From positions 1 through 53,330 of IMG/VR virus record IMGVR_UViG_3300022685_000036: DNA of 53,330 nt. The stretch is one strand, 5' to 3'. The notes below the pieces were generated by a model. The model was not told the DNA's origin, ran no database searches, and saw nothing but the letters and a program-made list of their open reading frames with translations. Of this stretch, positions 12,246 through 51,256 are shown piece after piece. The position numbers were made by a program, and so were the translations under genes. Numbering within the stretch: the first letter of the stretch is position 1; each line of letters starts with the position of its first letter. Origin of the DNA: a virus (Duplodnaviria; Caudoviricetes).

Positions 12246-12474
12246 AGATTCTGTACTCCATGCTGGAGCCTGGAACGAGAGTTTGAAAGAACCGCAGAGC
12301 TGCTTCTGCTGCTTCTGCTGCTTCTGCTGCTTCTGCTGCTTCTGCTGTCTCTTCCGTTCTTATGTCTTCCCACTCGGTCCAGCCATTTTCCCAGCTGTGA
12401 TGCACACCGTTGTAGCACCTTCGCATGGGGTCTGCATTGATGATGGTCGGCTTTCTGCTCTGCAACACGAACAT
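12235..12474 (-). CDS. Hypothetical protein with (AEA)n expansion
   Basis: INADPMRRCYNG; overlaps HNH start; contains 9-bp tandem repeat. Confidence 0.6.
   Translation of the reverse strand: MFVLQSRKPTIINADPMRRCYNGVHHSWENGWTEWEDIRTEETAEAAEAAEAAEAAEAALRFFQTLVPGSSMEYRICER
12299..12347. repeat. Perfect 9-bp tandem repeat (GCTGCTTCT)x5 plus partial copy
   Basis: Read directly from sequence. Confidence 0.95.
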
Positions 12475-14229: not shown

Positions 14230-14418
14230 GTGATCAATAACATAAACGACTTTTTGCGCGAGGCGGCATATTCACTTGCGAACAGAGACATTGAGCGCAT
14301 CGACGAGCTTCGAGAGATAGTCCGAGGCTGGGCTCAAACGGAAGAAGAAGCGAAAGCTCAACTAGAGCTGCTCGAAGAAATCGCCCTGGCGATCGAAGTA
14401 ATTCCTGGCGGTGTTTAA
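14230..14418 (+). CDS. Hypothetical acidic protein
   Basis: RBS CTGGAGG; TAATG-coupled to dnaE C-terminal fragment. Confidence 0.65.
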   Translation: MINNINDFLREAAYSLANRDIERIDELREIVRGWAQTEEEAKAQLELLEEIALAIEVIPGGV

Positions 14419-17318
14419 TGACTGATCCACGCCTCGCCCACGCCCTGAAAGCCAGCTCCCGCGCGCGGGAGCTTTTTGCCGAGGCCGAGCGCCGCGGCAT
14501 CACGCTGCCGCCCCCGCGGTACCGCTTCGACAAGACGGTCCCCGACATCGACGTCGACATCAGCCCCTCGGGGCGCGACAGCCTCTTCGCCTACCTCAAG
14601 CACCGGTACGGCCACGTGGCACGCATCGGCAACCTCAGCACGATGCAGCCGCGTTCCGTGCTGGCCCGGTGCGGAAAGGCGCTCGGCATCCCCGAGCAGG
14701 CCACCCGCGCGGTGCGCAGCGTGTTGGTGGAGTACAGCTCGGGCGACTCGCGGTACGGCAGGGCGTTGGAAGACACCCTGCAGCACACCGACCCCGGCCA
14801 AGCGTTCATGCGCAAGCACCCGGAGATGGCGATGGTGTACGCGGCGGAGCAGTCCGCCAGCCACACCTCGGTTCACGCCGGAGGGGTGGTCGTCTCGCCG
14901 ACCCCGCTGACCAACTACGCCACCGTCCGCGACGGCGTGCTCCAGATGGAGAAGTACGGCGCGGAGAACCTGAACCTGCTGAAGATCGACATGCTAGGGC
15001 TGCGCACGCTGGCGGTGCTGGAAGAGCTGGCGCCGCCCGAGTCCTACTACCAGCTGCCGCTCACGGATCAGCGGGCATTTGACGTCATCAACGCTGGTCA
15101 CTTCTCCGGCATTTTCCAGTTCGAGGGCGACGCCCAGCGGCGCGTCTCCGCGCAGCTCCACATCACCGATTTCCGCACCATGGACCACATCACCGCCCTC
15201 TCCCGGCCCGGACCGCTGGGCGGCGGCGCGGCCAACCACTACATCAACCGCTCTCGCGGCTCGGAGCCGGTCACGTACCGCCACCCCAGCATGGCGGCGT
15301 ACCTCGGCGACACGCTAGGCGTGGTGCTGTACCAGGAGCAGGTCATGTCGATCTGCCGCGAGATCGGCGGTTTTAACTGGTCCGACATCACCGAGATCCG
15401 CCGCGCCATGAGCAAGCGCAAAGGCGAGGAGTGGTTTGCGCAGTGGGGCGCCAAGTTCGCCGCGGGCGCCGCGCGGCTCCACGGAATGACGCGCGAGGAC
15501 GCGGACGCCATCTGGGACGAGATCAACTCGTTCGGATCTTATGGAATGAACAAGTGCGTCACCGCTAACACTCGCATCAAGCTCTGTCACCCCAACCAGT
15601 GGCTTGGCAAGAACCCCACGATCGAGGAGCTGTACCTTCACTACGAGCGCCCAGGCCGCAAGGGTCGCCCAGCCAAGCTGCTCAGCTTCGACGGCGAGCG
15701 AGCCAAGCCCGCCGTGGTCAAGCGCATCCACAAAACAGGCGTGAAGCGGTGCATCGAGCTGGTCACAGCCGACGGGCGCAGCATCGAGCTGACGCCGGAC
15801 CATCGGCTGCTGATCAACGGCCAGTGGGCAACCGCCGGCACCGCACAGCTGGGCGACGAGCTGACGGCGGTCAGCCGCAAGCGGTGGATTAAGGACGGTC
15901 CAAACGCTGGGCGCGGCAAAGCGTGGCGCAAAGGTCGCGCTGGCGCTGGGATGTACGACGTTGGCCATGGCCGTTCCATGTTCGAAGCTGCATTCCGCCG
16001 CGAGCGCGCATCCGACCCCTGCGACGACTGTGGCAAGGCGAAGCAGCGCATGGAAGTTCACCACAACGACTTCAACCACGGCGCAGACCGCCCAGACGAT
16101 CTGGCTTGGCTTTGCTCCGGCTGCCACAAGCAACGCCACATGGACGCCGGCAACTGGCTAACCCCATACGCACGCGGTTGGACGCTCGACCACCCAGCCA
16201 TCATCACCGAGATCCGCGAAGCGGGCTACCAGGAGACGTACGACATCGAGATGGCCGAGGAGCCGCACAACTTCGTACTGGCCAACGGCATCGTCTCCCA
16301 CAACAGTCACACCGTCTCCTACGCCATCATCAGCTACTGGTGCGCGTACCAGAAAGCCACCCAACCCCTAGAGTTTGCCGCCGCGCTGCTCCGCCACGCC
16401 AAGCACGAGGAGCAGGCGGTGGAGCTGCTGCGGGAGCTGGACGAGGAGCAGCTGCCGGTGGTGATGTTCGACATCAAGCGTTCCCAACCCGATTGGTCCG
16501 TGCAGGACGGCCAGCTGGTGGGCGGCTGGCGGAACCTCAAAGGGGTCGGACCCAAACTCGCCGAAAAGTACGCGGCAAATCCCCCGGCCGAGCTCCCCGC
16601 CAGACACGTGCTGCGGTTCCCCTCGATTCACGCCACGCACGAGCGGTGGGGCGCGTTGTACGACCTGTCCGCCGCGCAACGCAGCGCCGAGCTGAGGTGG
16701 GTGCAGCGCGGCACGCCGCTCAAAGCCGCCGCCGCCGCCGCCGCCGCCGCGCCGGTGCTGCAGCCCGTGCGCGAGCTGGCCGATTTGGCGGACGACGAGA
16801 TCGCCACCGTTGTCTGCCTGATCCGCCGCCGGGACCGCCGCGACGAGAACGAAGAGGTGCGGCGCAAGCGGCGCGGCGGAGACTTTCTGCCCGGCCAGAC
16901 GAAGTTCCTTGACGTGTTCGTGACCGACGACAGCACCAAGCGCCCGGTGATCGTGCGGTTCAAGAGCCGGGTGTGGGACAAATACGGTCGGCGAATTGCC
17001 GACCATGCAGTTGACGATGAAGACTGGTTGTTGGTGCACGGCCGATGGCTTAAGCAGTTCAATATGCTGCTGGCGGCACGTGCGGTTTGCCTCACCAAAC
17101 CTGGACTCATCGGCAATGTCCCTAACTCTTCCCGAGCAGCGCCTTTGGGCGCGGCTCCAGAAGCAGATCCACGGCATGTACACGCGGGTGGAGAACATCG
17201 CAGAGTCGGGAACCCCGGACGTGTGGACGGCGCGAGCGGGGTGGATCGAACTCAAGGTACCGCGCCGCGCCGCGCGGGCGGCAACCCCAATCCTTGGGCC
17301 AGGAACCCTTCGCGTTGA
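14418..17318 (+). CDS. dnaE: DNA polymerase III alpha, C-terminal fragment (palm catalytic Asp, thumb, fingers, HhH, OB), intein-containing
   Basis: PDIDVD, SVHAGGVVVS, LLKIDMLGL, GIFQFE, ALSRPGP, TLGVVLYQEQVM, RRAMSK, YGMNK|SH..SY, NLKGVG; lacks PHP and GS motif. Confidence 0.92.
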   Translation: MTDPRLAHALKASSRARELFAEAERRGITLPPPRYRFDKTVPDIDVDISPSGRDSLFAYLKHRYGHVARIGNLSTMQPRSVLARCGKALGIPEQATRAVRSVLVEYSSGDSRYGRALEDTLQHTDPGQAFMRKHPEMAMVYAAEQSASHTSVHAGGVVVSPTPLTNYATVRDGVLQMEKYGAENLNLLKIDMLGLRTLAVLEELAPPESYYQLPLTDQRAFDVINAGHFSGIFQFEGDAQRRVSAQLHITDFRTMDHITALSRPGPLGGGAANHYINRSRGSEPVTYRHPSMAAYLGDTLGVVLYQEQVMSICREIGGFNWSDITEIRRAMSKRKGEEWFAQWGAKFAAGAARLHGMTREDADAIWDEINSFGSYGMNKCVTANTRIKLCHPNQWLGKNPTIEELYLHYERPGRKGRPAKLLSFDGERAKPAVVKRIHKTGVKRCIELVTADGRSIELTPDHRLLINGQWATAGTAQLGDELTAVSRKRWIKDGPNAGRGKAWRKGRAGAGMYDVGHGRSMFEAAFRRERASDPCDDCGKAKQRMEVHHNDFNHGADRPDDLAWLCSGCHKQRHMDAGNWLTPYARGWTLDHPAIITEIREAGYQETYDIEMAEEPHNFVLANGIVSHNSHTVSYAIISYWCAYQKATQPLEFAAALLRHAKHEEQAVELLRELDEEQLPVVMFDIKRSQPDWSVQDGQLVGGWRNLKGVGPKLAEKYAANPPAELPARHVLRFPSIHATHERWGALYDLSAAQRSAELRWVQRGTPLKAAAAAAAAAPVLQPVRELADLADDEIATVVCLIRRRDRRDENEEVRRKRRGGDFLPGQTKFLDVFVTDDSTKRPVIVRFKSRVWDKYGRRIADHAVDDEDWLLVHGRWLKQFNMLLAARAVCLTKPGLIGNVPNSSRAAPLGAAPEADPRHVHAGGEHRRVGNPGRVDGASGVDRTQGTAPRRAGGNPNPWARNPSR
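15555..16304 (+). mobile_element. Cis intein (250 aa) with HNH homing endonuclease
   Basis: Starts CVTANT, block B TPDHRL, ends YDIEM..PHNFVLANGIVSHN followed by Ser; internal CDDC...EVHHND...DDLAWLCSGCHKQRH. Confidence 0.93.
16725..16748 (+). repeat. (GCC)8 trinucleotide run encoding poly-Ala linker in DnaE
   Basis: Read directly; translates within LKAAAAAAAAAPVL. Confidence 0.9.
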
Positions 17319-17885: not shown

Positions 17886-17914
17886 TTGACTTCTGCGAAG
17901 CACTAGGCGATAAT
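17886..17914 (+). promoter_or_regulatory. Early promoter P4 (divergent spacer)
   Basis: TTGACT-N17-GATAAT. Confidence 0.8.
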
Positions 17915-17938: not shown

Positions 17939-18376
17939 ATGCAACCCCAGCTCAATTTCGAATCAATGTCCGGACCCGAGCTTGTCGAGTGGTACAACAA
18001 GCACGCCCACAAGCCTGTCACCAAGTTCGCTTCCCGCGCCAAAGGCATCGATCGATGCTGGAAGCTGCTGGACGCGATGCGGTTCGACGCTCCGGACGAA
18101 CAGCAAGAGACAGCAACCATGAACGAAGAAACCCAAATCAACACTCCTGACCCGGATCGCAGCGCAGCGATGGCCACCAGCTGGCAGGACCCCGAGGTCC
18201 GCGCCAAGCGTGCCGCTCGCCACGCCATCACCGTCAACGGCGAAACGTACAAGTCCATGTACAAGGCATTCGAGGTGCTGGGCCTGGATCTGAAGGACCA
18301 CGCCAAGGTGCGGATGCAGTGCGTTCAGAACGGCACCGTCGAGTACGAAGGCCACACCTTCAAGCTCGCCAGCTAA
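17939..18376 (+). CDS. Hypothetical protein
   Basis: RBS AACTGGAG; SWQDPEVRAKR...VNGETYKS. Confidence 0.75.
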   Translation: MQPQLNFESMSGPELVEWYNKHAHKPVTKFASRAKGIDRCWKLLDAMRFDAPDEQQETATMNEETQINTPDPDRSAAMATSWQDPEVRAKRAARHAITVNGETYKSMYKAFEVLGLDLKDHAKVRMQCVQNGTVEYEGHTFKLAS

Positions 18377-18388
18377 CCGAGCACTCTC

Positions 18389-18470
18389 TTGGTTCATGGG
18401 CACTGCGCCAAGGTAAGGAAAGTCAGCGACCTTTCCTAGAGTTGTCGCTAGCAGGCCCACCATCAACCAA
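18389..18470 (+). ncRNA. Candidate structured leader RNA with H-type pseudoknot
   Basis: Nested complementary segments plus loop-downstream pairing (see findings). Confidence 0.45.
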
Positions 18471-18488
18471 ACTGGAGATTGAAGCGTT

Positions 18489-19265
18489 ATGAGAGCCTAC
18501 ACCGAAGACGACCTCCGCAGCGCTGCGCCGGCGGTTTTCGCAGAGGCCCCCGCCACCAACGTCAGCGGCAAGTACCAGTTCGTGAGCACCATCGACTTGG
18601 TGCGCGAGTTCTGGGACCGCGACTACGTCGTGGTCGACGCCGCGCAGGCCAGCGTCCGCAAGAACAGCTCCCGCGACTCGCTTCACGCCCTCCACATGCT
18701 GCGGCTCCAGCCGGCCAACGCGCCGCAGGAGCTTGACGGCCTGTTCCAGCAAATCCTGCTCAGCAACAGCCATCGCGGCCACAACGCGCTGAATTTCGGT
18801 GTCGGCATCTACCGCTTGGTCTGCACGAACGGAATGGTGGTCGGCAAGGCCGAGTCGCACTATCGGGCGCGGCACACGGGCAACGTCCATCAGACGATCG
18901 ACGAAGCGCTGCCGCACATCTTCCGTTCCCAGGAGCGGGCGCTGGAGCGCGTGGAGCGTTGGGCCGATATCGAGCTGACGCCTGCCCGCATCGAGCGCTT
19001 CGCCGACGAAGCCGCCGCGCTCCGCTCCGGGCGCTCGCCGCACGGCTACGACCTCGCCGACGTGCTGCGCGTGCGCCGCGCCGAGGACGAGGGCAACTCG
19101 CTGTGGCGCGTGTTCAACCGCGTGCAGGAGAACCTGACGCAGGGCGGCGTTCAGACAACCACCGCCAACGGCCAAACGCGCACCACCCGTCCTCTGCGCG
19201 GCATCGGACTCAACATGCGGTTCAACGCTGATCTCTGGGATCTGGCCGACGCGGTCGTAGCTTAA
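18489..19265 (+). CDS. DUF932-family protein
   Basis: APAVFAE.P...S.KY.F..T, LLSNSH.G, GIYRLVCTNGMVVG, NSLWRVFNRVQENL. Confidence 0.85.
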   Translation: MRAYTEDDLRSAAPAVFAEAPATNVSGKYQFVSTIDLVREFWDRDYVVVDAAQASVRKNSSRDSLHALHMLRLQPANAPQELDGLFQQILLSNSHRGHNALNFGVGIYRLVCTNGMVVGKAESHYRARHTGNVHQTIDEALPHIFRSQERALERVERWADIELTPARIERFADEAAALRSGRSPHGYDLADVLRVRRAEDEGNSLWRVFNRVQENLTQGGVQTTTANGQTRTTRPLRGIGLNMRFNADLWDLADAVVA

Positions 19266-19283
19266 CCCCACAACTAAACCCCG

Positions 19284-19297
19284 CGCCAAGGACGGCG
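19284..19297 (+). promoter_or_regulatory. CsrA/RsmA-consensus RNA hairpin, copy 3
   Basis: CGCC-AAGGAC-GGCG directly before the AACTGGAG RBS of the FAD oxidoreductase. Confidence 0.6.
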
Positions 19298-19317
19298 CCC
19301 AACTGGAGAATGCAGCA

Positions 19318-20217
19318 ATGCCAATTGCCCGCATAATCGGCGCAGGCTACTCCGGCCTGATCGCGGGGTTTGCGTTCCCGCAAATCCCGATCATCGAATC
19401 CGCCCCCGAACCAATCGAGCGCCACAAGGCTGTGCTGCGGTTCCGCACCGACCGCATCTCCGCGCTGACCGGCGTCGAGTTTCGGCGCGTGAACGTGCGC
19501 AAGGCAATCTGGTCCCACGGGCGCGAAACCGCGCCAACGGTCGCGCTGGCCAACCAGTACAGCATCAAGGTGCTGGGCCGCGTGGAGAACGACCGTTCGA
19601 TCTGGAATCTGGAACCGGTGGAGCGTTTCATCGCTCCGACCGACTTCTACTTCCAGCTCGTGGATCGGATGGCGGGTCGTATCAATTGGAATTTGAGTTG
19701 GGATTTCACAACGGCGTACGGGCCTGTGATCTCCACTGTGCCGCTGCCAACTCTGATCAAGATCAAGGGTCTTCACACAGGTCTGCACTTCGCCTCCGAG
19801 CCTATCGTCGTCGAGCGGTGTCATGTTCCGAAGTGCGACGTGTTTCAAACCATCTACTTCCCCGACCCCGAACTAGAGGTTTTTCGCGCGTCGATCACCG
19901 GCTCGATGCTGATTATGGAGTTTCGCGGTGAGCCCGCCATGGACGACTACCGCGCGGTGGCGGCGGCATTCGGGGTGGACCCAGAGATGCCGGGAACGCG
20001 CCACAATCAGCGGTACGGCAAGATTGCGCGCATAGCGGACGACGCCGCCCGCCGCGCGCTGTTGCATCGGCTGACCGCCGACCACGGCATCTACTCCCTC
20101 GGGCGGTTCGCCACGTGGCGCAACATACTGCTGGACGACCTGCCGCACGACTGCGCGGTGATCCGCCGCATTGAATCTGGCGGCGCGTACGCCGCCCAAC
20201 TGGAGGCTGCACGATGA
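19318..20217 (+). CDS. FAD/NAD(P)-binding oxidoreductase-like protein
   Basis: N-terminal Rossmann IIGAGYSGLIA; VISTVPL; C-terminal IYSLGRFATWR. Confidence 0.8.
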   Translation: MPIARIIGAGYSGLIAGFAFPQIPIIESAPEPIERHKAVLRFRTDRISALTGVEFRRVNVRKAIWSHGRETAPTVALANQYSIKVLGRVENDRSIWNLEPVERFIAPTDFYFQLVDRMAGRINWNLSWDFTTAYGPVISTVPLPTLIKIKGLHTGLHFASEPIVVERCHVPKCDVFQTIYFPDPELEVFRASITGSMLIMEFRGEPAMDDYRAVAAAFGVDPEMPGTRHNQRYGKIARIADDAARRALLHRLTADHGIYSLGRFATWRNILLDDLPHDCAVIRRIESGGAYAAQLEAAR

Positions 20218-20975
20218 AAGTGACGCTGAAACGCTACACCCCCGACGCGCTCGACCTGCTGCTCGCGACCAAGGAGACCCGCCTGGGCGGCACGGATGAC
20301 CCTGCCCGCTGGTCCGAGGAGCGAAAGGCTGAGCATCTGCAGTACATGCTCGGCACCATCAAGTCCAGCTGGGAGTTCGTGGATTACGTCTTCCACATCA
20401 GCGGCGTCTCCCGTGCCTTCACTCATCAGCTGGTCCGCACCCGCCAGGGCAGCTACGCTCAGGAGAGCCAGCGCACGGTGGACGCGCGCGACAACGGCGT
20501 GGTCCTTCCGGAATTCGAAACGGCGGCTGGAGAGCTTGCATTCACGGCGATCACGGACAGGATCTTCCGAGCTTACGCGGAGATGATCGACGCGGGCGAA
20601 AAGCCGCAGAACGCTCGGGCCATCCTCCCGACCGCAACCGCCACGTCGATCTGGGCGAAGTTCAACCTCCGCACCCTCAGCGACATGGCTCGTGTGCGGC
20701 TCTGCACCCGCACCCAGGGCGAGTACCAGCGGGTGTTCCGAGAGATGTGCGACGAAGTTGTTGCGGTCCACCCCTGGGCCGAGCCGTTTCTGGCGGTCGA
20801 GTGCGTGGCGAGCGGCACCTGCGCGTTCCCCAATTATGGGCCGGACCACTGCCCGATCTACCACCCCTCGCTCGACCGCACCGAGGTGAAGCGCCAACAG
20901 CGTGAGCGGTTCTTCACCGCGCCCATCCATGAAGCCGCTCCGCAGCGAGGCAAAGACAGCCGGAGTATTGGATAA
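20214..20975 (+). CDS. thyX: Flavin-dependent thymidylate synthase homologue (variant motif)
   Basis: S.WEF..Y.F.I.GVSRAFTHQLVRTR..SYAQESQR, ARAILP, NLR.L..R.C...Q.E; Cys-rich C-terminal tail. Confidence 0.85.
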   Translation: MKVTLKRYTPDALDLLLATKETRLGGTDDPARWSEERKAEHLQYMLGTIKSSWEFVDYVFHISGVSRAFTHQLVRTRQGSYAQESQRTVDARDNGVVLPEFETAAGELAFTAITDRIFRAYAEMIDAGEKPQNARAILPTATATSIWAKFNLRTLSDMARVRLCTRTQGEYQRVFREMCDEVVAVHPWAEPFLAVECVASGTCAFPNYGPDHCPIYHPSLDRTEVKRQQRERFFTAPIHEAAPQRGKDSRSIG

Positions 20976-21328
20976 TGAAGATGAACGTGCCGTTGCACAA
21001 AATATTCCGTTACAACAAGAGCCTCGCGGCCAAGCTCCGCGAAGGCTACCCCGTGATGATCCAGCCGGACGAGACGGGGGACATCGTTGTTCGCGCTGCA
21101 GATCCGGACACAGGCGTTTATGATTCCATCGGCCAGATCCCGGCGGACAGCGCAGACGCCGACCCGAAGTTCGCCCACTACCCGGCGCTGCAGATGGTGC
21201 AACAAATCGCCGAGCGGCATAACCAGTGGCCGATCGAGTCCAAGCTCACCAAGCATTTCGTGCTTCACAAGAAGGAATACGCCGAGCCGTGGCTTGCGAT
21301 GCAGGTGGAAATTGATACTGGAGAATGA
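20975..21328 (+). CDS. Hypothetical protein in nucleotide cluster
   Basis: TAATG-coupled to thyX. Confidence 0.7.
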   Translation: MKMNVPLHKIFRYNKSLAAKLREGYPVMIQPDETGDIVVRAADPDTGVYDSIGQIPADSADADPKFAHYPALQMVQQIAERHNQWPIESKLTKHFVLHKKEYAEPWLAMQVEIDTGE

Positions 21329-21331
21329 ACG

Positions 21332-21739
21332 ATGATTCTGATTGACATTGACGGCTGCATCAGCGACGACCGTTGGCGGTTGCCGCTTATTGATCACACC
21401 GCCCAAGACCCCTGGCACGACTACCACGTCGCCGCCGAGCACGACGAGCCCGCCAATCTGCACGTGATCACCGAGCCCGCCATCGCGCTCACAGCGATGC
21501 CGGCGCGATACGCGGAGATCCGGCGGCGGTGGCTGCGGCAGCACGCCCCAGCTGTTGTGCGGGTTGTGATGCGACCGGACGGCGACCATTCGTCGTCGCC
21601 GATCCTGAAGCGCAACATGCTCCGCTTCGTGCGCGGCCAGTTCCCCAGCGAGCGCATCCGCGCGGCCTACGACGACCGCGCCGACGTGGTGAGCATGTAC
21701 CGCCGCGCCGGGATCAACGCGGAGGTGTTGGCGGTATGA
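21332..21739 (+). CDS. HAD-family phosphatase (PNKP phosphatase-domain-like)
   Basis: DIDGCISD, MRP.GDH....LK, AYDDR..V..MYR..GI. Confidence 0.85.
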   Translation: MILIDIDGCISDDRWRLPLIDHTAQDPWHDYHVAAEHDEPANLHVITEPAIALTAMPARYAEIRRRWLRQHAPAVVRVVMRPDGDHSSSPILKRNMLRFVRGQFPSERIRAAYDDRADVVSMYRRAGINAEVLAV

Positions 21740-22023
21740 GCAGCGATCCCCTTCAGAACCTGGAGCGCGCCGCCGCCACTTTCCGGGAGCGCAACGCGCA
21801 GTACGGCGATTCCTGGCGGCGATTCGGAACGGTTGCGGCGGCGCTGTTTCCCGACGGCGTCACCATCCGCACCGAGGCCGACTGGGCGCGGTGGGGCGTG
21901 CTGTTCCACGTGATCGACAAGCTCAGCCGCTACGCCGGAGCGCCGCACCGCGATTCGGCTCACGACCTGATCAACTACGCTGCGATGTTGGAGGCACTGA
22001 CCAACGATGTGGGCAGCGGTTGA
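21736..22023 (+). CDS. Nmad1/DUF6378-like all-helical nucleotide pyrophosphatase-type protein
   Basis: ATG 21736; ERNAQYGDS...KLSRY...HRDSAHDLINYAAML. Confidence 0.7.
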   Translation: MSSDPLQNLERAAATFRERNAQYGDSWRRFGTVAAALFPDGVTIRTEADWARWGVLFHVIDKLSRYAGAPHRDSAHDLINYAAMLEALTNDVGSG

Positions 22024-22501
22024 CTTCGAAACCACCGGCCTGTTGCTCCACCCGCAGGCGCAAGCGCCACAGCCGCGCGCTGTGGAGTTTGCCGCCGTGC
22101 GGGAGGACGGCGAGGAGCGGGTGTGGCTGTTCGATCCTGGCGTGCCGCTGCCGCCCGAGATCATCAAGATCACCGGCATCACTCCCGGCATTCTCGACGG
22201 CGCGCCGCCGTTTCAGGAGCTGTGGCCGGAGATCGACATCTTCATGCCCGAGGAGGTCTGGGCGCACAACGCTGCGTTCGACAGCGGCATCCTCCACGCT
22301 GAGCTGGCGCGGTTCGGCGGCAACGACGCGCACCGCTGGCGGTGCACGGTCGAGGAGTACGCCCCGGAGTGGGGTTACCGCCCGCGGCTGATCCATCTGT
22401 ACGAGTGGATGTTCGGAGAGCCGCTCGCCCAGGAGCACCGCGCGTTGAGCGACACGCGGGCGCTGGCAAAAATCGTTCGCACGATGAAAGAAAGTTGTTG
22501 A
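22007..22501 (+). CDS. dnaQ: DEDDh 3'-5' exonuclease (Pol III epsilon-like)
   Basis: DFETTG, ITGIT, AHNAAFD, HRALSD. Confidence 0.9.
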   Translation: MWAAVDFETTGLLLHPQAQAPQPRAVEFAAVREDGEERVWLFDPGVPLPPEIIKITGITPGILDGAPPFQELWPEIDIFMPEEVWAHNAAFDSGILHAELARFGGNDAHRWRCTVEEYAPEWGYRPRLIHLYEWMFGEPLAQEHRALSDTRALAKIVRTMKESC

Positions 22502-22526
22502 CTTCTGAACAGAAACGCGCGATAAT
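22498..22526 (+). promoter_or_regulatory. Early promoter cassette P5
   Basis: TTGACT-N17-GATAAT; -35 box overlaps the dnaQ stop codon. Confidence 0.85.
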
Positions 22527-23071: not shown

Positions 23072-23491
23072 ATGCAGACATTCCTCCCCTTCCCCAGCTA
23101 CATCCGCAGCGCCCAGGCGCTGGACTCCCGCCGGCTCGGCAACCAGTGCTACCGCGAGACGCTGACGCTGTTGCGCGGCGGCTGGCCGAACCATCCCGCC
23201 TCCCGTATGTGGCGCGGCTACGAGCACGAGCTTGCGGCCTATGGGCTCACGCTCGCGTTCGAGATGCGCCGCCGGGGCGGCTGGCGCCCCGAGGTCACGG
23301 ACCGCTGGATCAACTTCTACTCCGCCGCCATGCGTGAGCTGCCGTGGTCGCCGCGGCCGCCTTGGCTCGGCGACCCGGAGTTCCACCGCGCGCACCAGAG
23401 CAACCTGATCCGCAAAGACCCGGAGCACTACGGGCGGCTGTTTCCCGGCGTGCCGGACGACCTGCCTTACATCTGGCCGGAGACCGCATGA
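23072..23491 (+). CDS. Pyrimidine-dimer DNA glycosylase-like protein (MSMEG_6728 family)
   Basis: MQTFLP....SA..LD..RLG.Q..E, GW.NHPA..MW.GY, PPWLG...FH..HQSNL.RKDP.HY...LPY.WP. Confidence 0.85.
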   Translation: MQTFLPFPSYIRSAQALDSRRLGNQCYRETLTLLRGGWPNHPASRMWRGYEHELAAYGLTLAFEMRRRGGWRPEVTDRWINFYSAAMRELPWSPRPPWLGDPEFHRAHQSNLIRKDPEHYGRLFPGVPDDLPYIWPETA

Positions 23492-24525
23492 TCCCACAAC
23501 TCAGAGTCCGCACCGAGTACACGTTCAAGCATGTGTACGGCAAGCTGCCGCAGGTCGCTGCGGCGATCTCCGCCGCGCCGGCGGCGGCTATCGTGGACGC
23601 CGAGTCCACCTGGGGCCACGAGCGTTGGGCGTCAGCGCTGAAGCCGCACGGCGTGCGCCCGATGTACGGCGTGGCTGTCGAGGTGCCGTTTGCCGACGGC
23701 CGCAAGCCGCACGGCTGGGTGCTGGCGCGCGACGACATCGGCGAGCTGTACCGGTTCGCCTCCGACGCCGACCCGGATTGGCGCGCGGCGGAGGGGCGTC
23801 TGCTGCGGTTCGCCGGGGCGGCGCTCACCGACCCTGAGGAGTTTGATTACGTTGACGTCAACCCGGCTTCCGCTCGTGCAGCGCTGCGCGCGGTGAAGCT
23901 GGCGCGGCGCACCGGCCGGCCGCTCGTGGTCACGAACCTCAACCGCTGGCCAGCCCCCGAGCACGAGAACGTGGCGCTGGCGCTGTGGGACAACCGCGCT
24001 GTGCGGTACGCTGGACACATCCTCAGCGACGACGAGCTGCGGCGGGCGCTGGTGCCGGAGGTGATGGATGCGGCGACGTTCGACCGCGCCTCGCAGGCCA
24101 CCGCCGACGCCGCCGCGCTGAGCACCGCGCAGCTGCTCCCCGCACCGCAGCTGGAAGTGCCCGGCGACCTGGACGCCGAAATCGAGGCTGGTCGTCAGCT
24201 GCGCATCCGTCAAGGGATGCCGTGGAACGAAGAGTACGCTGCGCGGCTGGCGTCGGAGCGAGAGACGATCGCCGACAAAGGATTCGAGAGCTACTTCATC
24301 GTTGTCGGCGACCTGATGCGCGAGGCCAAGCGGCGAGGCATCATGACCGGAGCGGCACGCGGCAGCGCCGCCGGGAGCCTGGTCAGCTACGTGCTGCAGA
24401 TCACCGAGGTCGACCCCATCAAGCACAATCTGCTGTTCGAGCGGTTTATGGACATAAACCGTGGCGGCTGGTTCTTCACAGACGAGTATCTGGACGAGGT
24501 GGAGGAGCTGCTCAAAAAAAGTTGA
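23488..24525 (+). CDS. dnaE: DNA polymerase III alpha, N-terminal fragment (degenerate PHP domain plus first palm segment)
   Basis: QLRVRTEYT (PHP motif I variant), YGVAV, RL..E...I..KGF.SYF..V.D, ARGSAAGSLVSY.L.ITEVDPI.H.LLFERFMDINR. Confidence 0.92.
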   Translation: MIPQLRVRTEYTFKHVYGKLPQVAAAISAAPAAAIVDAESTWGHERWASALKPHGVRPMYGVAVEVPFADGRKPHGWVLARDDIGELYRFASDADPDWRAAEGRLLRFAGAALTDPEEFDYVDVNPASARAALRAVKLARRTGRPLVVTNLNRWPAPEHENVALALWDNRAVRYAGHILSDDELRRALVPEVMDAATFDRASQATADAAALSTAQLLPAPQLEVPGDLDAEIEAGRQLRIRQGMPWNEEYAARLASERETIADKGFESYFIVVGDLMREAKRRGIMTGAARGSAAGSLVSYVLQITEVDPIKHNLLFERFMDINRGGWFFTDEYLDEVEELLKKS

Positions 24526-35703: not shown

Positions 35704-36076
35704 GGAGGGCCATCCGGGCAGACCAAGCGCCTTCACGACGCGCCTTCAGGACGGCGCAGTGTTCGAAGAGATTGGGGTTGTCGTGCTGGCCTTGCTCCCC
35801 GAGGAGGGCAAGCCGCGTTCAGACTGGAGTGTTCAGATTGAGCGCCGATGTTGCGGCAAGATCGAGACCATCAGGGTCAAGGCCCTACGCTCGCGCCTGA
35901 CGAGCGTTGTCCACCGCCCAAGCATGTTCCCGCACATGTGCCGCAGCTGCGCAGACGCGGCAAAGAAGGATGGCACTATGCGTTCGGCGCAGTCCGCGAA
36001 AAGCGCCTGGCGCCCGACCAGCGCGGCCTGGGGCGCCAGGTGGAGTTATTATGCTGACGGAGGTAATAAGCCATGA
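35693..36076 (+). CDS. Hypothetical Zn-binding protein
   Basis: CCGK...CRSC. Confidence 0.55.
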   Translation: MPFKEGHPGRPSAFTTRLQDGAVFEEIGVVVLALLPEEGKPRSDWSVQIERRCCGKIETIRVKALRSRLTSVVHRPSMFPHMCRSCADAAKKDGTMRSAQSAKSAWRPTSAAWGARWSYYADGGNKP

Positions 36077-36282
36077 GCAGCTTTTTATGTGAGCATTGCG
36101 GCGCGATGGCCATGGACACCAGCCGCGGCTGTGAGCACCACGAGCCAAATGTGCCGACACATGCGCTGACGACAGACGAGATGCGCTGGTTGATAGACGC
36201 GCGCAATCGTGTGGCACTGATCTATAGGCCACACCTAGACAGCCTGGAGTTTCAACTCAGGAATCGCGAGGTCCTACGATGA
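36073..36282 (+). CDS. Hypothetical protein
   Basis: RBS GGAGG; CEHCG. Confidence 0.6.
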   Translation: MSSFLCEHCGAMAMDTSRGCEHHEPNVPTHALTTDEMRWLIDARNRVALIYRPHLDSLEFQLRNREVLR

Positions 36283-36479
36283 AAATGACGTTCGAAAGCT
36301 TCTCAGTAAACGGAGAATTGTTGCCCAGCCAAGAATGGGAAGTGTACACCTTGCGGGTCGATAGAGACCACAACGAATATGCGCTAAACATCTGGGTACT
36401 GGAAGATAACGGCAAAAGCACCCTCTTGATGTTGACGCAGGATCAGCTTGACAGGGCCATTGATAACGGCTGGAAATAG
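36279..36479 (+). CDS. Hypothetical protein, last gene of plus arm
   Basis: ATGA-coupled; converges with tail operon. Confidence 0.6.
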   Translation: MKMTFESFSVNGELLPSQEWEVYTLRVDRDHNEYALNIWVLEDNGKSTLLMLTQDQLDRAIDNGWK

Positions 36480-36498
36480 CTGAGCCCGCGCTGCACCA

Positions 36499-36951
36499 TC
36501 ACACAGTAAAGATCCGAGTCTCCAGCTCATCTCCCGATACCGCCCAAAGTGCTAGGGTCAAGGAAGACCCTGTCACTGTGTAGTCTACTCCGTTTGTCAG
36601 TATCGACCCATTCAACGCTACTTCAACCAGCATTGAACTAGCGGGCGTCGTCGTGAGCGCAAACGCTGTTTGACCGGCAGTGGCGGTGAAGTGCTCTGTT
36701 GCAATGGCCCCGACGCTGGTATTGTTCAAGCGAGACAAAGCTTCTGCCAGCGTGATAGAAGATGCTTGGGGATAGTTTAAAGTACACATCTGCCCTGCGG
36801 GGCCGGTTATAACACATCGCAAAAAACCAGCAACCCCAGCAAGAACGGAAATTGTTTTATATACACCTGTGCCGAGTTCCGAAAGCTGTTGCTTTGCTTT
36901 GTCAGCAGCGTCACAAACACACTGGATACATGACTGAACCGTATTGACCAC
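36499..36951 (-). CDS. Tail-associated protein with small beta domain
   Basis: FTATAGQTAF...VALNG..L..GVDYTVTGSSLT. Confidence 0.7.
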   Translation of the reverse strand: MVNTVQSCIQCVCDAADKAKQQLSELGTGVYKTISVLAGVAGFLRCVITGPAGQMCTLNYPQASSITLAEALSRLNNTSVGAIATEHFTATAGQTAFALTTTPASSMLVEVALNGSILTNGVDYTVTGSSLTLALWAVSGDELETRIFTV

Positions 36952-36952
36952 G

Positions 36953-37378
36953 TTAACCTCCGTAAGACTTTACCAAAACCAGATCGCCAGGCGATAGCCC
37001 AATACTGAATGTAAGGGTAGACCCAGTGACATTATAATCAATGCCACTTGTCATCATAGAGCTGTTCACAGTAACCCTGACTGGCTTCAAAGGAGTCTCG
37101 GGAAGAATAAGTACAGTTTTCCCAGGCTGGTCTTTGTTGTACCACGACCAAAGGTTAAACCCCTCGTCCAACCCCCCAACTACCCTGGACATGAGGTTTT
37201 GAAAACTTGCTCCCTCCTGCCCACTAGGAAAAGTTACGTAGCCACCTAAGGGCGAAACCCATTTAAATATAGGTTCGATATTTCTAAACCAATATTCAGT
37301 AAAGGCGTTTAGGACGGTCTCAGTTGCTGAGCTAATCGCCTCACAGAAAGTGTTACAACATTCAGCCATTAGGGTCAC
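36953..37378 (-). CDS. Tail-associated protein, C-terminal domain paralogous to previous gene
   Basis: VTVNS....GIDYNVTGSTLTF..L..GD.V. Confidence 0.7.
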   Translation of the reverse strand: MTLMAECCNTFCEAISSATETVLNAFTEYWFRNIEPIFKWVSPLGGYVTFPSGQEGASFQNLMSRVVGGLDEGFNLWSWYNKDQPGKTVLILPETPLKPVRVTVNSSMMTSGIDYNVTGSTLTFSIGLSPGDLVLVKSYGG

Positions 37379-37922
37379 TCCACGCCGCAGCGTCGCCTGC
37401 GGTTTGATGTAATTGGATCCAGTTTACTGGGTCTGCTAAATTCACCTCAAAGACCAAACATTCGGTTAGTTTTTCTTGATACAAGCAAAGCCAACAATCC
37501 ATGTCTATCTTGTACTGCTCGGCCTGTACGGCTACCTCCCAAACATTCTCGGTTAATAGATTAACCTGCCAATCAGAAATATACCTAATCGGGTGTTCGG
37601 AAGGATGCCATACCGGGCATTGACCAGTGACCATGGGCAAAAAGTGCCACCCGTAACCATGCTTGTTTGCGAACGCTTCCCATGCATGCAATTGATCTGT
37701 TGTTAGAGTCCAAGTCAAGTCATAGGTGGTCGGTCTGTCGCTAAACAAGCGGCGCTGCCTTGCATACCCAGTGGCAACTGACGTTCGGATTATTCCGGCA
37801 TTCACTGAGTAACTGAAAGCCGAAATGCTTGGGCATGGCAAATTATAATCAACTGTGCTAATTAAGCCGCCTGCACAGGGTTCACCGCTAACGACATCTA
37901 GTGTCTCTATACAAGTAGTCAT
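37362..37922 (-). CDS. Minor tail protein (distal-tail/gpM-like)
   Basis: LPCP..S.FS....IIRT...TGYARQRRLF..RP...LTW. Confidence 0.7.
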   Translation of the reverse strand: MTTCIETLDVVSGEPCAGGLISTVDYNLPCPSISAFSYSVNAGIIRTSVATGYARQRRLFSDRPTTYDLTWTLTTDQLHAWEAFANKHGYGWHFLPMVTGQCPVWHPSEHPIRYISDWQVNLLTENVWEVAVQAEQYKIDMDCWLCLYQEKLTECLVFEVNLADPVNWIQLHQTAGDAAAWSDPNG

Positions 37923-40363
37923 GCGTAAGCCCTCTCATCGTACTCAAAGGCAATGACGGATGTCTTTGTTCCACCAGTGTGACGTACTTCAGACACTACA
38001 CAAAGAACTGGACTCTTGTTCAAAGGCACTATGTTTATTACGTCTCCTGGGTTCAAAATAAGTGCATCTAGCTCAGAATTGAATTTCCAAGTAAACCTAC
38101 TAAATTGGCTCTTATTCCAGATCTTTCTAGCCCTGGCCACTGCTGTATCGTTACAGGTACAACCTATCAGCTTAACTGAACGTGGGCGCACACTGGTACT
38201 TGGGTACAAAGCGTAAGCCGGTTCATAAGTTATCTCGTCACGGTATTCTATTTCCACTCCGTCTTCATCGGTTCTGTTTCCCAAAGCATAAGTAACACTA
38301 AGCGAATTTTCTTCAATAAGTCCGCCGCTAGTTTGACCTTCTACAAAAGACATGACGGGGACAAGATTAGGATTGTCGTCAATCAAAACTAGCTCAGAGC
38401 CGCGAGGGAAAATGCGATAGTCTGCGGCATTTGCTACCGTTTGCAGGGCCTCCCATACATTGGATTGAAAATCAAACACAGCGTTAAAAGACCCGGAAAG
38501 GGTCCCCTCAATTAGGCTTGAGTTTTGGTTTGCCCCGTATTTCACATTTGACCATATATCAATAAAAGCATCCTGGGCAGAGGTAGTGTCAGCCCCGTTG
38601 AGTTTGCGAGTGCAAGATACTGAAATCCTATTCAAAGCGTTACTGCTAACGCCGTTAGTCGCTTTGATCTTCATTGCTAGTAGGGTAACGTCTCCATACC
38701 CCTTCCCCCCATATTGAGCGTAGACGAACCCTTTCAACCCAGTCCAAAGCACCCTGTCAACAACTCTTGAGTCATTCTCAGATGCGGCGCTTGTTCTGGC
38801 AAATCTTACCAAGTAGTAGTCACCGGAAGGGACAATAAGCCCATTCGTTCGCCTTTGCGGGGTAGTTGTCGCTAGAGTCTCGTTCCAGGTGGTTGAGATA
38901 GTGGGGGCGCCAGTAGGGTTCCCGTCTTGGTCTATTTGTGTTGCCTCCAGCAAAAAGTCTACGCTGTTTGACTCTAGCTCCCCCGACTCCTTATTTACTT
39001 TATAGAGCCCGCCGGGGAACACGTAGTCAATTTCAATAGTGCCTATTTCCTGCCCAGGTCCGCCCACTATGAACTGTTGTAAAGTAGAGACGTCATAGTA
39101 AATAAACGACACGGGGTCGCCGACAGAAGAAGCGGCTTTTTCTATATCGATGTCGGTATAAATGACCCAGTCTGGCGAAGAGAAAGTATTTGCGCCTGTT
39201 TGGGTTATATTTGTCAGGGTCAAGACGTAGTTAATTGCTATCGCCCCAATCTCTCCAGAGATAACGTAATCAGAAGCCCCGCCAAAAGAGACAGTTAACG
39301 CGTCACCTGTTTGTGTGTTATCAACCAATTTCTTAAAGTTGTCGAAATTAAGCACGTTAATCTCTAAGTCGCCGTTTACTATTCGAGCGTCCCCTCTCAA
39401 TGCGCTAAAGAGCAAGAAAGGTTGATCAAGGGTGGCTGGCGAAATTGTAATCTGTGAACCGTTTACAGTCTCAATAGTGTGGGGAACACCGAAAATGTAT
39501 ATCGTAGTACCGATAGGGGGAATATCGGCTGTGGTAACGTCAATTGCATCGGCAGCTAAAATCGTACCAGAACTAGACAATTCTGTTGGTGTTTCCAATT
39601 CAATGTCAGAAACTTCAATAGAAGTGATGACATTTTCTGGAAAGCCCCCAATAGTATCCACAAAATCGGAGTCTATAAAGCCGATTGTCTGTGTATGGTC
39701 AGTAGGGCTATACGATTTGTAGCTCACTGAGCCAGGAGCCAACCGGTTGACACTTGTGTTAGAAATATAAATATCAGAAATACCGTACTCTCCTTGACCG
39801 AGACAGAACAGCAAAAACACCCATTGGTTATTTTCGTGATATTTTGACCATGCTTGTGTTGCATAATCAGGAACTATTCTATTTTTCCCGTAAGCTACGG
39901 GGATTGAGTCACCAAGTCTAACTTGATTTTGCGGGACAGCTAGGTTATACACAGACTCTGCTTTCGGCAGAGACACTTGAGATGGTGAAGACGCGACATC
40001 TAGTTTTGGAGCGCTAGGGGCTAGGGCGTAACTGACCGCTGTAGATACGACCGCCACAGCAAGCGCAGCAAGCACCGGGCTCGCAGCCACAGCACTAACA
40101 ACAGCACCAACAGCGGCTGCCACGGGTGCGCCTGGAGCCACAAGCAGCACCACTTCGTCGCCCGGGGCAAGCACCAGGCCATAATCTTCAACAGGAAGAG
40201 GGGCCTTGTTTAGAAATGTTTGATGGCTGCCCGGGAAACCCTCAGGATAAAACTTGTTCAAAAAGCCGCTCTGTCCATCATTCGAACAGTAGGGGCCTAC
40301 CCATTCTCTGATTTGGTAGTCAGATGGGTTCAGCGGATTGTCAACAATGATTATCCTAGCCAT
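37919..40363 (-). CDS. Tail tip / central fibre protein (gpJ-like)
   Basis: N.VRLG..IPV.YG...PD, LGQGEY, FPGGL, FNAVFD, DGVEIEY.D, L.PGD.I. Confidence 0.85.
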   Translation of the reverse strand: MARIIIVDNPLNPSDYQIREWVGPYCSNDGQSGFLNKFYPEGFPGSHQTFLNKAPLPVEDYGLVLAPGDEVVLLVAPGAPVAAAVGAVVSAVAASPVLAALAVAVVSTAVSYALAPSAPKLDVASSPSQVSLPKAESVYNLAVPQNQVRLGDSIPVAYGKNRIVPDYATQAWSKYHENNQWVFLLFCLGQGEYGISDIYISNTSVNRLAPGSVSYKSYSPTDHTQTIGFIDSDFVDTIGGFPENVITSIEVSDIELETPTELSSSGTILAADAIDVTTADIPPIGTTIYIFGVPHTIETVNGSQITISPATLDQPFLLFSALRGDARIVNGDLEINVLNFDNFKKLVDNTQTGDALTVSFGGASDYVISGEIGAIAINYVLTLTNITQTGANTFSSPDWVIYTDIDIEKAASSVGDPVSFIYYDVSTLQQFIVGGPGQEIGTIEIDYVFPGGLYKVNKESGELESNSVDFLLEATQIDQDGNPTGAPTISTTWNETLATTTPQRRTNGLIVPSGDYYLVRFARTSAASENDSRVVDRVLWTGLKGFVYAQYGGKGYGDVTLLAMKIKATNGVSSNALNRISVSCTRKLNGADTTSAQDAFIDIWSNVKYGANQNSSLIEGTLSGSFNAVFDFQSNVWEALQTVANAADYRIFPRGSELVLIDDNPNLVPVMSFVEGQTSGGLIEENSLSVTYALGNRTDEDGVEIEYRDEITYEPAYALYPSTSVRPRSVKLIGCTCNDTAVARARKIWNKSQFSRFTWKFNSELDALILNPGDVINIVPLNKSPVLCVVSEVRHTGGTKTSVIAFEYDERAYA

Positions 40364-40737
40364 CTTAAAACCTTTTGCTTTTTATAGCCAAGCCGGTAGA
40401 GTACTCTGGGGTCTATCCTTATTACTCCGGCTTGCCCCTTGGTTATGTGCAGGACACTGCTTTCATCAACAAAAGGACAAACGTGAGCCCATTGTCTTGA
40501 AGTCCCGCATATTAATACATCGCCCTTTTTTGGGTGGGAGACTTCTTGCCATTTTGGAGACGCCCTGCTGTTTTCTATGTATTCATTTATTACTTCGAAA
40601 TCCATTTTTCCAAAGCTTAGCACGTAATCACAATTGATACCTAACCGAGACATAACTTCCAGAGTCAGCCCCCAACAGTCGTAAGCATTTGGCCCACGGC
40701 CCTGCCACTGAAACGGTTTTCCGATCAAATCATTCAT
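40351..40737 (-). CDS. NlpC/P60-like tail assembly protein
   Basis: IGKPF..GRGP..YDCWGL, GD, H. Confidence 0.85.
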   Translation of the reverse strand: MNDLIGKPFQWQGRGPNAYDCWGLTLEVMSRLGINCDYVLSFGKMDFEVINEYIENSRASPKWQEVSHPKKGDVLICGTSRQWAHVCPFVDESSVLHITKGQAGVIRIDPRVLYRLGYKKQKVLRWLG

Positions 40738-44857: not shown

Positions 44858-44912
44858 TTTCTGCTCGTTTAATGTGGCTGTAACAGCGACGCGCTATTAC
44901 AGCCATGCTAAG

Positions 44913-45269: not shown

Positions 45270-45311
45270 ACACATCTCCGTCAAGTACGCACGTACCTGT
45301 GCAAAATACGC

Positions 45312-46307: not shown

Positions 46308-46311
46308 TAAT

Positions 46312-49147: not shown

Positions 49148-49157
49148 GGGGTAAACC

Positions 49158-49673: not shown

Positions 49674-49674
49674 C

Positions 49675-50196: not shown

Positions 50197-50202
50197 CGTA
50201 TT

Positions 50203-50964: not shown

Positions 50965-51049
50965 GAGCCTCTCCATTTTTGGGTGCCCCGGGTCATGGCC
51001 ACAACACACCGACCAAAGTGAGTTTGAAAGACCACGCCCGGGGCATTGA

Positions 51050-51241: not shown

Positions 51242-51256
51242 AGTACACCTCTTAGG

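Follow-up and report, generated by a model that had tools for sequence, protein, structure and literature searches.

The 53,330-bp window analyzed here is a complete virus record (IMG/VR record IMGVR_UViG_3300022685_000036; Caudoviricetes; CheckV completeness 100%), and the gene run at 19318–22501 on its + strand had been read, from the letters alone, as a candidate DNA base-hypermodification operon. The run starts with a 299-aa phage-specific protein of flavin adenine dinucleotide (FAD) fold, hereafter FLAV (19318–20217), which is followed by a divergent thymidylate synthase of the ThyX type (253 aa; 20214–20975), a 117-aa orphan open reading frame (ORF), a small HAD phosphatase, a DUF6378-like protein and a DnaQ-type exonuclease; the genes described in that reading are all present, on the + strand and nested between two halves of DnaE. 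Our comparison reveals that FLAV is obligately paired with this ThyX clade, and that phages bearing the module show a TG-specific relaxation of palindrome avoidance. Taken with the chemistry reported for Pbunavirus DNA, these observations put at about even chances the proposal that the FLAV–ThyX pair belongs to a thymidine-modification pathway of the Pbunavirus type.

FLAV and the divergent ThyX form an obligate pair

We compared 155 viral loci fetched by either FLAV or ThyX (not deduplicated, a few of them from one contig). Both genes occur together in 151. In all 151, FLAV is the upstream gene and is encoded on the strand of ThyX, the median gap being 138 nt; the four unpaired loci are cut off by the contig edge within 1.6 kb on the side of the missing gene. 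The co-occurrence of RTR-type ThyX with the FAD protein, which the sequence-only reading had put forward as a check on itself, is thus strict. In a collection of isolates, FLAV was found in 362 records and a ThyX-like sequence in 482, with identical counts for the two in Pseudomonas (292/292), Escherichia (27/27) and Serratia (9/9). Gordonia, Bacillus, Streptomyces, Clostridium and Sulfolobus, whose phages carry canonical ThyX, are missing among the genera named for FLAV, where nine more genera are unnamed.

The pair also extends beyond the Pbunavirus-like myoviruses. It is found in 40-kb Vibrio and Ralstonia phages and, together with a DUF6378 protein and without DnaE, in the 206-kb Rhizobium jumbo phage RHph_TM2_3B, whose ThyX is of RNR type. 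Among the 92 related loci with at least 7 kb of sequence downstream of ThyX, the HAD phosphatase is present in 71, DUF6378 in 84, DnaQ in 86 and an intact DnaE in all 92, while 47 of the 112 related loci having at least 3 kb upstream of FLAV carry a DUF932 homologue there. The only genes common to the window and all six complete module-bearing genomes compared are those for DnaE, DnaQ, FLAV and ThyX. The module is real, ancient and widely shared, and FLAV and ThyX are functionally linked beyond mere synteny.

The module is shared with Pbunaviruses, whose DNA carries modified thymidine

The sequence-only reading had pointed to Pbunavirus-type phages as carrying a similar gene set and having modified DNA, and this parallel proved correct. 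Banzai encodes a flavoenzyme, ThyX, a fusion of HAD and DUF6378, a 3'-5' exonuclease and DnaE in the same order as the window, and hypermodified thymidine has been reported in F8 and 14-1 (PMC12191111). In its passages on these two phages, the bioRxiv preprint of Yee et al. (2025) describes new thymidine-derived nucleosides of 362 and 390 u, designated by its authors as sugar-type adducts, which replace about a quarter of T and do so at TG sites; F8 DNA resists five enzymes with TG in their site and is cut by five without TG (PMC12191111). According to the same passages, Pbunaviruses are without known modification genes, the biosynthetic genes are unassigned, and the modification had gone unnoticed until this preprint (PMC12191111). 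Our literature searches (listings and passages) found no published link of FLAV or this ThyX to the Pbunavirus modification.

The Pbunavirus replication module (F8 gp56–gp66, 14-1, PB1, and Banzai gp58–gp69) resembles that of the window in gene order and families, and the window proteins are 40% (FLAV) and 46% (ThyX) identical to those of Banzai; in F8, FLAV is gp65, ThyX is gp59 and HAD–DUF6378 is gp57. The differences are that HAD and DUF6378 are separate genes in the window, whereas they are fused in one 338–354-aa Pbunavirus protein (phrog_4889), that the window DnaE is split with its halves reversed, and that the window lacks the five small ORFs that Pbunaviruses carry between FLAV and ThyX. 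Only the replication module is shared with Banzai, the structural genes being unrelated. Between F8 and 14-1, identity is 97.8% for DnaQ, 97.3% for FLAV, 93.8% for ThyX and 80.8% for HAD–DUF6378 (354 vs 338 aa), so that, among the large proteins of the module, the fusion has diverged most in this comparison (L324, L325; record positions 43000–52000). A further candidate enzyme for the DNA chemistry of Pbunaviruses is gp008 of Banzai (L161, 4169–4756), annotated by its depositors as a cupin related to cysteine dioxygenase with conserved iron-binding histidines. The window has no gp008 homologue.

Palindrome avoidance is relaxed at TG in module-bearing phages

If the T of TG is protected, restriction-type sites that contain TG need not be avoided. 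We therefore calculated observed/expected ratios (O/E) for the 64 six-base palindromes under a maximal-order Markov expectation and compared the palindromes containing TG (hence CA) with the rest. The EcoP1_I site is not known to contain TG or CA. Across 147 module loci (2.13 Mb), O/E is 0.872 for TG-containing palindromes and 0.667 for the others (Mann–Whitney U test, p 4e-5); the 35 most-avoided palindromes are all without TG, and no word with TG ranks higher than 36th of 64. The difference, 0.206 by bootstrap (0.178–0.236), has a positive sign in 135 of the 147 loci, and it is present at a GC content of at least 0.58 as well as below 0.50. When ten dinucleotide classes were compared, TG/CA was the most relaxed relative to control, and CC/GG differed as strongly in the opposite way, being more avoided. 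The contrast holds at Markov orders 1–4, with a within-set p of only 0.073 at order 1.

By comparison, neither of two control sets, each made of random viral contigs drawn by arbitrary 14-base patterns, shows such a difference. In 68 GC-rich contigs the ratios are 0.705 vs 0.695 (p 0.43; positive in 40/68; bootstrap difference 0.011), and in 66 contigs with a mean GC of 0.47, from which one contig carrying canonical ThyX had been removed, they are 0.769 vs 0.752 (p 0.50; positive in 35/66). A control set built from the phiKMV RNA polymerase was abandoned in favour of these, as it comprised only seven near-identical loci. Outside the module region, the effect recurs in five of five further isolates (WFC, MyoSmar, FoX6, Kyle and VA-RY-3; pooled 0.882 vs 0.757, p 0.011). 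Across PY059YO380, the ratios are 0.94 vs 0.63. Banzai, taken as a positive control, shows 0.96 for TG-containing palindromes vs 0.71 for the rest (p 0.021), its ten most-avoided words are all without TG, and the effect is common to its structural, replication and early regions. The Rhizobium phage RHph_TM2_3B (L311–L321) shows almost no avoidance, with 0.97 in both classes, and is thus uninformative for or against; TTGCAA alone stands out in it (O/E 0.56). In their sequence statistics, module-bearing phages look as though their TG sites were protected, in agreement with the one experimental report.

The divergent ThyX has a remodelled active site

The window ThyX matches PF02511 far above its cut-off (124.3 vs 24.8 bits; residues 7–188) and stays just below that of the NCBIfam equivalog TIGR02170 (84.9 vs 87.9 bits). 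Its AlphaFold2 model (pLDDT 93.4) resembles the ThyX structures of Thermotoga maritima and Mycobacterium tuberculosis (Foldseek E about 1e-11; TM-score 0.77–0.79 by target over ~208 columns). Judged by its domain and predicted fold, the protein is a true ThyX in a divergent clade. The two features on which the sequence-only reading had remarked, an RTRxxSxxxxSxR signature and a Cys-rich C-terminal tail, are both confirmed. The motif reads RTRQGSYAQESQR, the His at the second position of the canonical RHRxxSxxxxSxR being replaced; RTR is found in 114 of the 120 closest homologues (RSR in 2, RNR in 2, pattern unmatched in 2), whereas RHR is present in the three solved ThyX species compared. RTR also occurs in 74 of 80 ThyX loci which, having been chosen through clade-specific peptide patterns, describe the clade and not all ThyX, as do the further counts over these loci below.

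The substitutions go beyond the motif. In alignment with T. maritima ThyX, His51, His53, His59, His79 and His178 are replaced by D, I, F, T and R, respectively. The equivalent of His53, which we take to contact folate (a PDB entry title exists for an H53A mutant with folate), is the invariant Ile49. At the position of Tyr91, the 80 loci carry V (31), T (30), A (16), F (2) or S (1), and Tyr in none; at that of Ser88, no fewer than 48 of the 120 homologues carry Ala, and the window ThyX has Ser. Conversely, Arg78, Arg80, Arg90, Arg147 and Arg174, which presumably bind dUMP or the nucleotide, all align to Arg in the window ThyX, and Gln75 and Glu58 are retained as well. At window positions 135, 162 and 166, the first two of which match Arg147 and Arg174, 78 of the 80 loci read RRR. 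A T. maritima study, in its passages on catalysis, names Ser88 and Tyr91 as probable general acids in methylene transfer and states that activity falls strongly when they are mutated (PMC8316439).

In addition, four cysteines are invariant in the sub-clade of the window ThyX, one in the core (C164) and three in the tail (C197, C203 and C213), the latter lying in a C-terminal extension of ~45 residues that reaches past all solved ThyX structures. Such a four-Cys site would predict bound Zn or an Fe–S cluster. The ThyX proteins from Ralstonia, Vibrio and Rhizobium phages retain RTR or RNR and are devoid of the cysteines. The window ThyX thus has the Pfam domain, the fold, the motif arginines and the Arg147/Arg174 equivalents in common with the canonical enzymes of T. 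maritima and M. tuberculosis, and differs from them in its motif, in the replaced His53, His59, Tyr91 and His178 equivalents (with frequent Ala for Ser88 in the clade), in its cysteines and extension, and in its constant pairing with FLAV.

These features bear on the alternative that survives best, namely that the divergent ThyX simply makes dTMP for fast phage replication. FLAV would then either assist ThyX, perhaps as a flavin- or NAD(P)H-linked reductase by which the flavin of ThyX stays reduced, or be an unrelated traveller in the cassette; the HAD and DUF6378 proteins would clean the nucleotide pool, and the TG modification of the relatives would be made by other, faster-evolving genes. 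The strong Pfam match, the modelled fold and the kept arginines, Gln75 and Glu58 all suit such an enzyme, and a second thymidylate synthase is absent from this genome rated 100% complete (PF00303, the ThyA family, has no match in the six frames of the record). Moreover, the block is co-inherited with DnaE and DnaQ in 92/92 loci with enough sequence, so that synteny alone may explain the pairing, and two phages with different adducts have almost the same FLAV and ThyX. However, canonical ThyX needs no partner flavoprotein, FLAV is unreported among phages with canonical ThyX (as far as genera are named), and the pair persists without DnaE in the jumbo phage. The clade has, furthermore, lost Tyr91 and in many members Ser88, the residues whose mutation is so costly in T. 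maritima, and TG-specific relaxation tracks the module across genera that share no other enzyme. On balance we regard plain dTMP supply as somewhat unlikely.

FLAV is a phage-specific protein with an FAD fold

FLAV carries a dinucleotide-binding motif, GAGYSG, at its N-terminus (GxGxxG; Glu27), and lies outside all curated families: no Pfam or NCBIfam family was matched, for Pfam even at E<=10, and the sole family match is to phrog_4828 (4e-81), of unknown function. Homologue searches in 90%-identity clusters returned 2470 proteins at E<=0.001 among 4387 candidates, of which the best 120 have no Pfam domain and are named only 'hypothetical protein'. In a profile search, the family extends to 1119 representatives of 50%-identity clusters, of which 1014 have E<=1e-10. 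Across the homologue, profile and Atlas searches, the family is large, sharply bounded and seen in phages only.

The structural model is confident (pLDDT 89.9) and displays a two-domain FAD fold. Its best solved neighbours (Foldseek, PDB) are UDP-galactopyranose mutases (UGM; E 4e-9; TM-score 0.63–0.68 by query, 0.40–0.47 by target), followed by protoporphyrinogen oxidase, renalase, halogenases and hydroxylases, and its Atlas neighbours are Amino_oxidase-family proteins (TM-score 0.74–0.79 by query). The kinship to amine oxidases and protoporphyrinogen oxidases is by structure alone, as a hidden Markov model match to their family PF01593 is absent. Likewise, hhalign aligned FLAV with Escherichia coli Glf over only 19 columns of the Rossmann motif (probability 2.6%), and since this alignment is confined to the FAD motif we keep FLAV outside the UGM and amine-oxidase families; a C-terminal UGM-like motif, once considered, was dropped, as the Glf comparison gave no support. 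The FLAV profile found nothing past the FAD motif among PDB sequences (a capsid protein, E 0.056; L-amino-acid oxidase, E 2.4), and a fold search of BFVD returned only family members and generic FAD enzymes. FLAV thus shares its two-domain fold with UGM (Glf) and with amine-oxidase/protoporphyrinogen-oxidase flavoproteins, which have 367–510 aa compared with its 299 aa, and differs from them in its lack of a Pfam match and its restriction to phages. By motif and model it is best described as an FAD-fold protein that resembles both groups and is a member of neither. Of the earlier label 'FAD oxidoreductase', the FAD part is borne out by motif and fold, and the oxidoreductase part has no family match behind it.

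A narrower version of the modification proposal assigns the pathway to FLAV alone, acting on DNA at TG sites after replication; ThyX would be an ordinary thymidylate synthase, and its peculiarities would be noise of the lineage. The TG specificity reported in the F8 and 14-1 passages calls for an enzyme that works on DNA (PMC12191111), and there is a precedent in PaMx11, whose gp47, as described in the part of a study that concerns it, is an FAD enzyme acting on modified thymidine (glycinyl-thymidine) in DNA (PMC8989533). The FLAV family is also basic, with a median isoelectric point of 8.56 over 120 members and nine invariant Arg/Lys. Nevertheless, hhalign matched FLAV to PaMx11 gp47 weakly and only at the N-terminal FAD motif (probability 29%), neither a DNA-binding domain nor a fusion was observed, a search for longer forms (525–2000 aa) being negative, which is weak evidence, and the tie of FLAV to a divergent ThyX clade would be left unexplained. 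We consider a role of FLAV alone distinctly unlikely; it is a sub-case of the best explanation, and its likelihood is included in that of the latter.

A putative thymidine-modification pathway

In known systems, thymidine hypermodification starts from the thymidylate synthase family. In the portions of a study that deal with M6, ViI, PaMx11 and PhiW-14, T is replaced partially and in a context-dependent manner by a base substituted at the C5-methyl group, which protects against nucleases; the first step belongs to an enzyme of the thymidylate synthase family, and in PaMx11 an FAD enzyme takes part (PMC8989533). These phages use a ThyA-type dUMP hydroxymethylase, a 5-hydroxymethyldeoxyuridine (5-hmdU) DNA kinase and an aGPT-Pplase transferase, whereas the starter in the window would be of ThyX type. 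A flavin-using precedent is the 5-hydroxy-dCMP synthase of RB69 and DLP3, a ThyA homologue which, in the passages that describe it, employs a flavin for a switched chemistry and starts a glycosylated pyrimidine (PMC13326640). Unlike the window enzyme, it has a ThyA rather than a ThyX fold and acts on a cytosine base, and those passages describe no separate flavoprotein partner (PMC13326640).

We propose that the locus is the nucleotide-chemistry arm of a shared phage replication cassette comprising DUF932, FLAV, ThyX, HAD, DUF6378, DnaQ and DnaE. Its core would be an obligate flavoenzyme pair, formed by a ThyX clade with a remodelled active site and a phage-only FAD protein with a UGM/amine-oxidase-type fold. 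This pair, probably aided by the HAD and DUF6378 proteins, may perform a C5-uracil chemistry beyond plain methylation and may constitute the conserved core of genes behind the thymidine hypermodification at TG in Pbunavirus virion DNA, in which case the window phage would carry the same kind of modification as a protection against restriction. In the division of labor that we prefer, ThyX would build a C5 carbon unit or an exocyclic methylene on dUMP via a flavin-N5 adduct, and FLAV would either supply or process the sugar-type substituent or act on DNA. We infer causation by these genes, the step of each enzyme and the way in which the TG context is imposed. The mechanism first suggested, in which the two flavoproteins make a non-canonical nucleotide, the phosphatases (in a conjectural role) bias the pool and the phage DnaE incorporates the product, does not explain the TG context or the replacement of only about a quarter of T. 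The TG context, which no pool-level model accounts for, is its main gap.

Several observations weigh against this proposal. ThyX is a mononucleotide enzyme, while a TG context with three quarters of T canonical implies a DNA-level or context-dependent step. No GT2 glycosyltransferase was found in the window, and a DNA-level kinase or transferase was found neither among the 35 + strand ORFs nor in the one – strand ORF scanned against Pfam and PHROGs, the structural arms not having been scanned family by family. F8 and 14-1 carry different adducts despite their FLAV and ThyX identities, so that these two proteins cannot alone set the adduct. The conserved arginines that contact dUMP fit an ordinary thymidylate synthase, and a phage without its own ThyA may simply need dTMP. 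As to palindromes, the whole window genome gives 0.85 vs 0.71 (p 0.2, not significant), its signal is found only in the replication arm (0.92 vs 0.66) and is missing in the structural arms of lower GC (0.73 vs 0.75), and the window sequence alone is weakly informative. For the 4-bp words CATG and TGCA, depletion is stronger among the module loci (O/E 0.79 and 0.77) than among the control contigs (0.94 and 0.90), whereas simple protection would give the reverse; a steric penalty for two close modified T on opposite strands is a possible explanation. The control phage phiKMV alone shows a difference of 0.16. Finally, the loci are homologous and hence non-independent samples, and as the group is defined by its module genes the signal is correlational. 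As a separate observation, 6-bp palindromes containing CATG or TGCA are not further avoided in the 147 module loci (L002–L156).

A more specific chemistry can be conceived, in which the divergent ThyX and the UGM-fold FLAV jointly perform a reductive C5-alkylation of dUMP with an aldose in place of the one-carbon unit. UGMs work via a flavin-N5–sugar adduct; by analogy, reduced flavin N5 would form an iminium with the sugar C1, and the sugar carbon would be handed to C5 of dUMP as in ThyX, giving a C-linked polyhydroxyalkyl- or C-glycosyl-deoxyuridine. The HAD phosphatase might free the aldose from a sugar phosphate, and the co-inherited DnaE and DnaQ might set the TG context by selective extension or proofreading, both of which are conjecture. 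The arithmetic agrees with the reported masses (deoxyuridine + aldopentose + 2H – H2O = 362.3 u; deoxyuridine + aldohexose – H2O = 390.3 u); O-linked 5-hmdU adducts give the same values, so the fit does not discriminate, and we hold this scheme to be highly doubtful.

A role unrelated to thymidine, such as counter-defence, a renalase-type activity (redox or NAD(P)H repair) or a mending of DNA ends in which the phosphatase acts, could draw on the renalase and generic FAD monooxygenases among the structural neighbours of FLAV and on the polynucleotide-kinase-phosphatase (PNKP) type of the HAD domain, yet FLAV is strictly adjacent to ThyX and the analyses run gave no pointer to a defence or repair context, making it very improbable.

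Transcription unit and accessory genes

In the window, structural genes occupy both ends on the – strand, and replication genes span ~12–36 kb on the + strand. FLAV and ThyX belong to a + strand unit at 17939–22501 that runs from promoter to promoter and encodes a 145-aa protein, DUF932, FLAV, ThyX, the 117-aa orphan, the HAD phosphatase, the DUF6378-like protein and DnaQ. It is headed by a promoter-like site at 17886–17914 (+ strand; TTGACT-17-GATAAT), and the next such site, at 22498–22526 (+ strand), marks its end. A promoter scan of the window detected five sites, four of them on the + strand (17886, 22498, 22766 and 24534), compared with 1.1 ± 1.0 in shuffles. Because none lies between 17886 and 22498, we also count the first two genes into the unit, namely those of the 145-aa protein (17939–18376, + strand; phrog_4730, function unknown; homologues in Banzai, MyoSmar, Kyle and PY059YO380) and of the 258-aa DUF932 protein (18489–19265, + strand; family and PHROG matches). 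From 19318 to 22501 the genes are tightly packed, neighbours overlapping by 1–17 nt or lying 3 nt apart.

The heading site is one of eight copies of a promoter-plus-leader repeat, TTGTTGAC-N17-GATAAT, at 13343, 13884, 17520, 17879, 22491, 22759, 24527 and 27327. In six of the eight, a conserved leader, AGTCCTACGTTGAGGG...CCCTC, comes next; it is hairpin-capable and precedes a GGAG ribosome site. Another repeat, at 12290–12361, consists of six overlapping copies of the 27-nt unit GCTGCTTCT with a 9-nt period.

The remaining genes of the unit all lie on the + strand. The 117-aa orphan ORF (20975–21328), which was not among the genes that the sequence-only reading had listed, has no match in Pfam (including at E<=10) or PHROGs; a homologue was found in one related locus only (L002) and in none of the 92 loci with enough downstream sequence. 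The HAD phosphatase (21332–21739) matches PF25109 (HAD_PNKP) with 39.7 bits against a cut-off of 27.6, and is of the PNKP-phosphatase type. Tested for the nucleophile motif DxDx(T/V), it has DIDGC at residues 5–9, with Cys at the fifth position.

The 95-aa protein that follows (21736–22023) had been called Nmad1-like, a label that failed. Its one family match is to DUF6378, at 26.3 bits just below the 27.1 cut-off, and its Atlas neighbours are DUF6378 clusters, whereas DUF1599, which we take to be the family of Nmad1 (one search listing is consistent with this), gave no Pfam match at E<=10. The last gene (22007–22501) encodes a DnaQ-type DEDDh 3'-5' exonuclease with an RNase_T domain (62.4 bits vs 24; phrog_192, 5.5e-36).

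Elsewhere in the replication arm, a gene at 29889–30431 matches PHROG 'pyrophosphatase' families (phrog_3301, 8e-29), and a MazG-like pyrophosphatase is also encoded by Banzai (gp052). GC content falls from ~0.63 over 2000–36000 to 0.45–0.52 in the right-hand structural arm (36000–50000). This drop, together with the missing TG-palindrome signal in the structural arms, suggests a mosaic genome whose structural module was recently acquired.

The split DnaE and its surroundings

The unit is flanked by the two parts of DnaE, both on the + strand. The C-terminal part (14418–17318), with the palm from Pfam position 99 and the fingers, contains an intein and an HNH endonuclease and lies upstream, whereas the N-terminal part (23488–24525), with the PHP domain and the palm to Pfam position 98, lies downstream, so that the halves are reversed, the C-part being 6 kb upstream of the N-part. 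The cut is clean, falling at 98/99 of DNA_pol3_alpha just ahead of the PDIDVD catalytic motif. By comparison, DnaE is intact in 92/92 related loci, where the gap between the two matches is at most 52 nt. An assembly artefact between the repeated promoter elements is a possible source of the rearrangement. The N-part has an acidic tail of ~20 residues and the C-part a basic leader of ~40 residues, which could, as a guess, pair as helices; a split intein at the break was rejected by reasoning from these lengths, which are too short for a HINT fold.

The intein inside the C-part (~15615–16305, residues ~400–629) matches Intein_splicing with 39.8 bits vs a cut-off of 35.8, and its HNH homing endonuclease scores 21.0, just below 21.4. 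Between DnaQ and the DnaE N-part sits a gene of the MSMEG_6728 family (23072–23491; Pyr_excise-like, of the T4 endonuclease V type), which matches NF038085 with 132 bits vs a cut-off of 100 and is absent from 92/92 related loci.

Implications

Pbunaviruses are among the phages most used in therapy against Pseudomonas aeruginosa, and the present analysis provides testable candidate genes for their DNA modification, namely FLAV, the divergent ThyX and HAD–DUF6378. The FLAV–ThyX pair defines a very large phage group, whose hosts include Pseudomonas, Escherichia, Serratia, Pantoea, Xanthomonas, Ralstonia, Vibrio and Rhizobium, and the TG-specific palindrome signature suggests that protection may be a trait of the whole module-bearing group. 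If the proposal is true, a pyrimidine hypermodification pathway would for the first time be seen to begin with an enzyme of ThyX rather than ThyA type, and a function would be assigned to a large orphan flavoprotein family.

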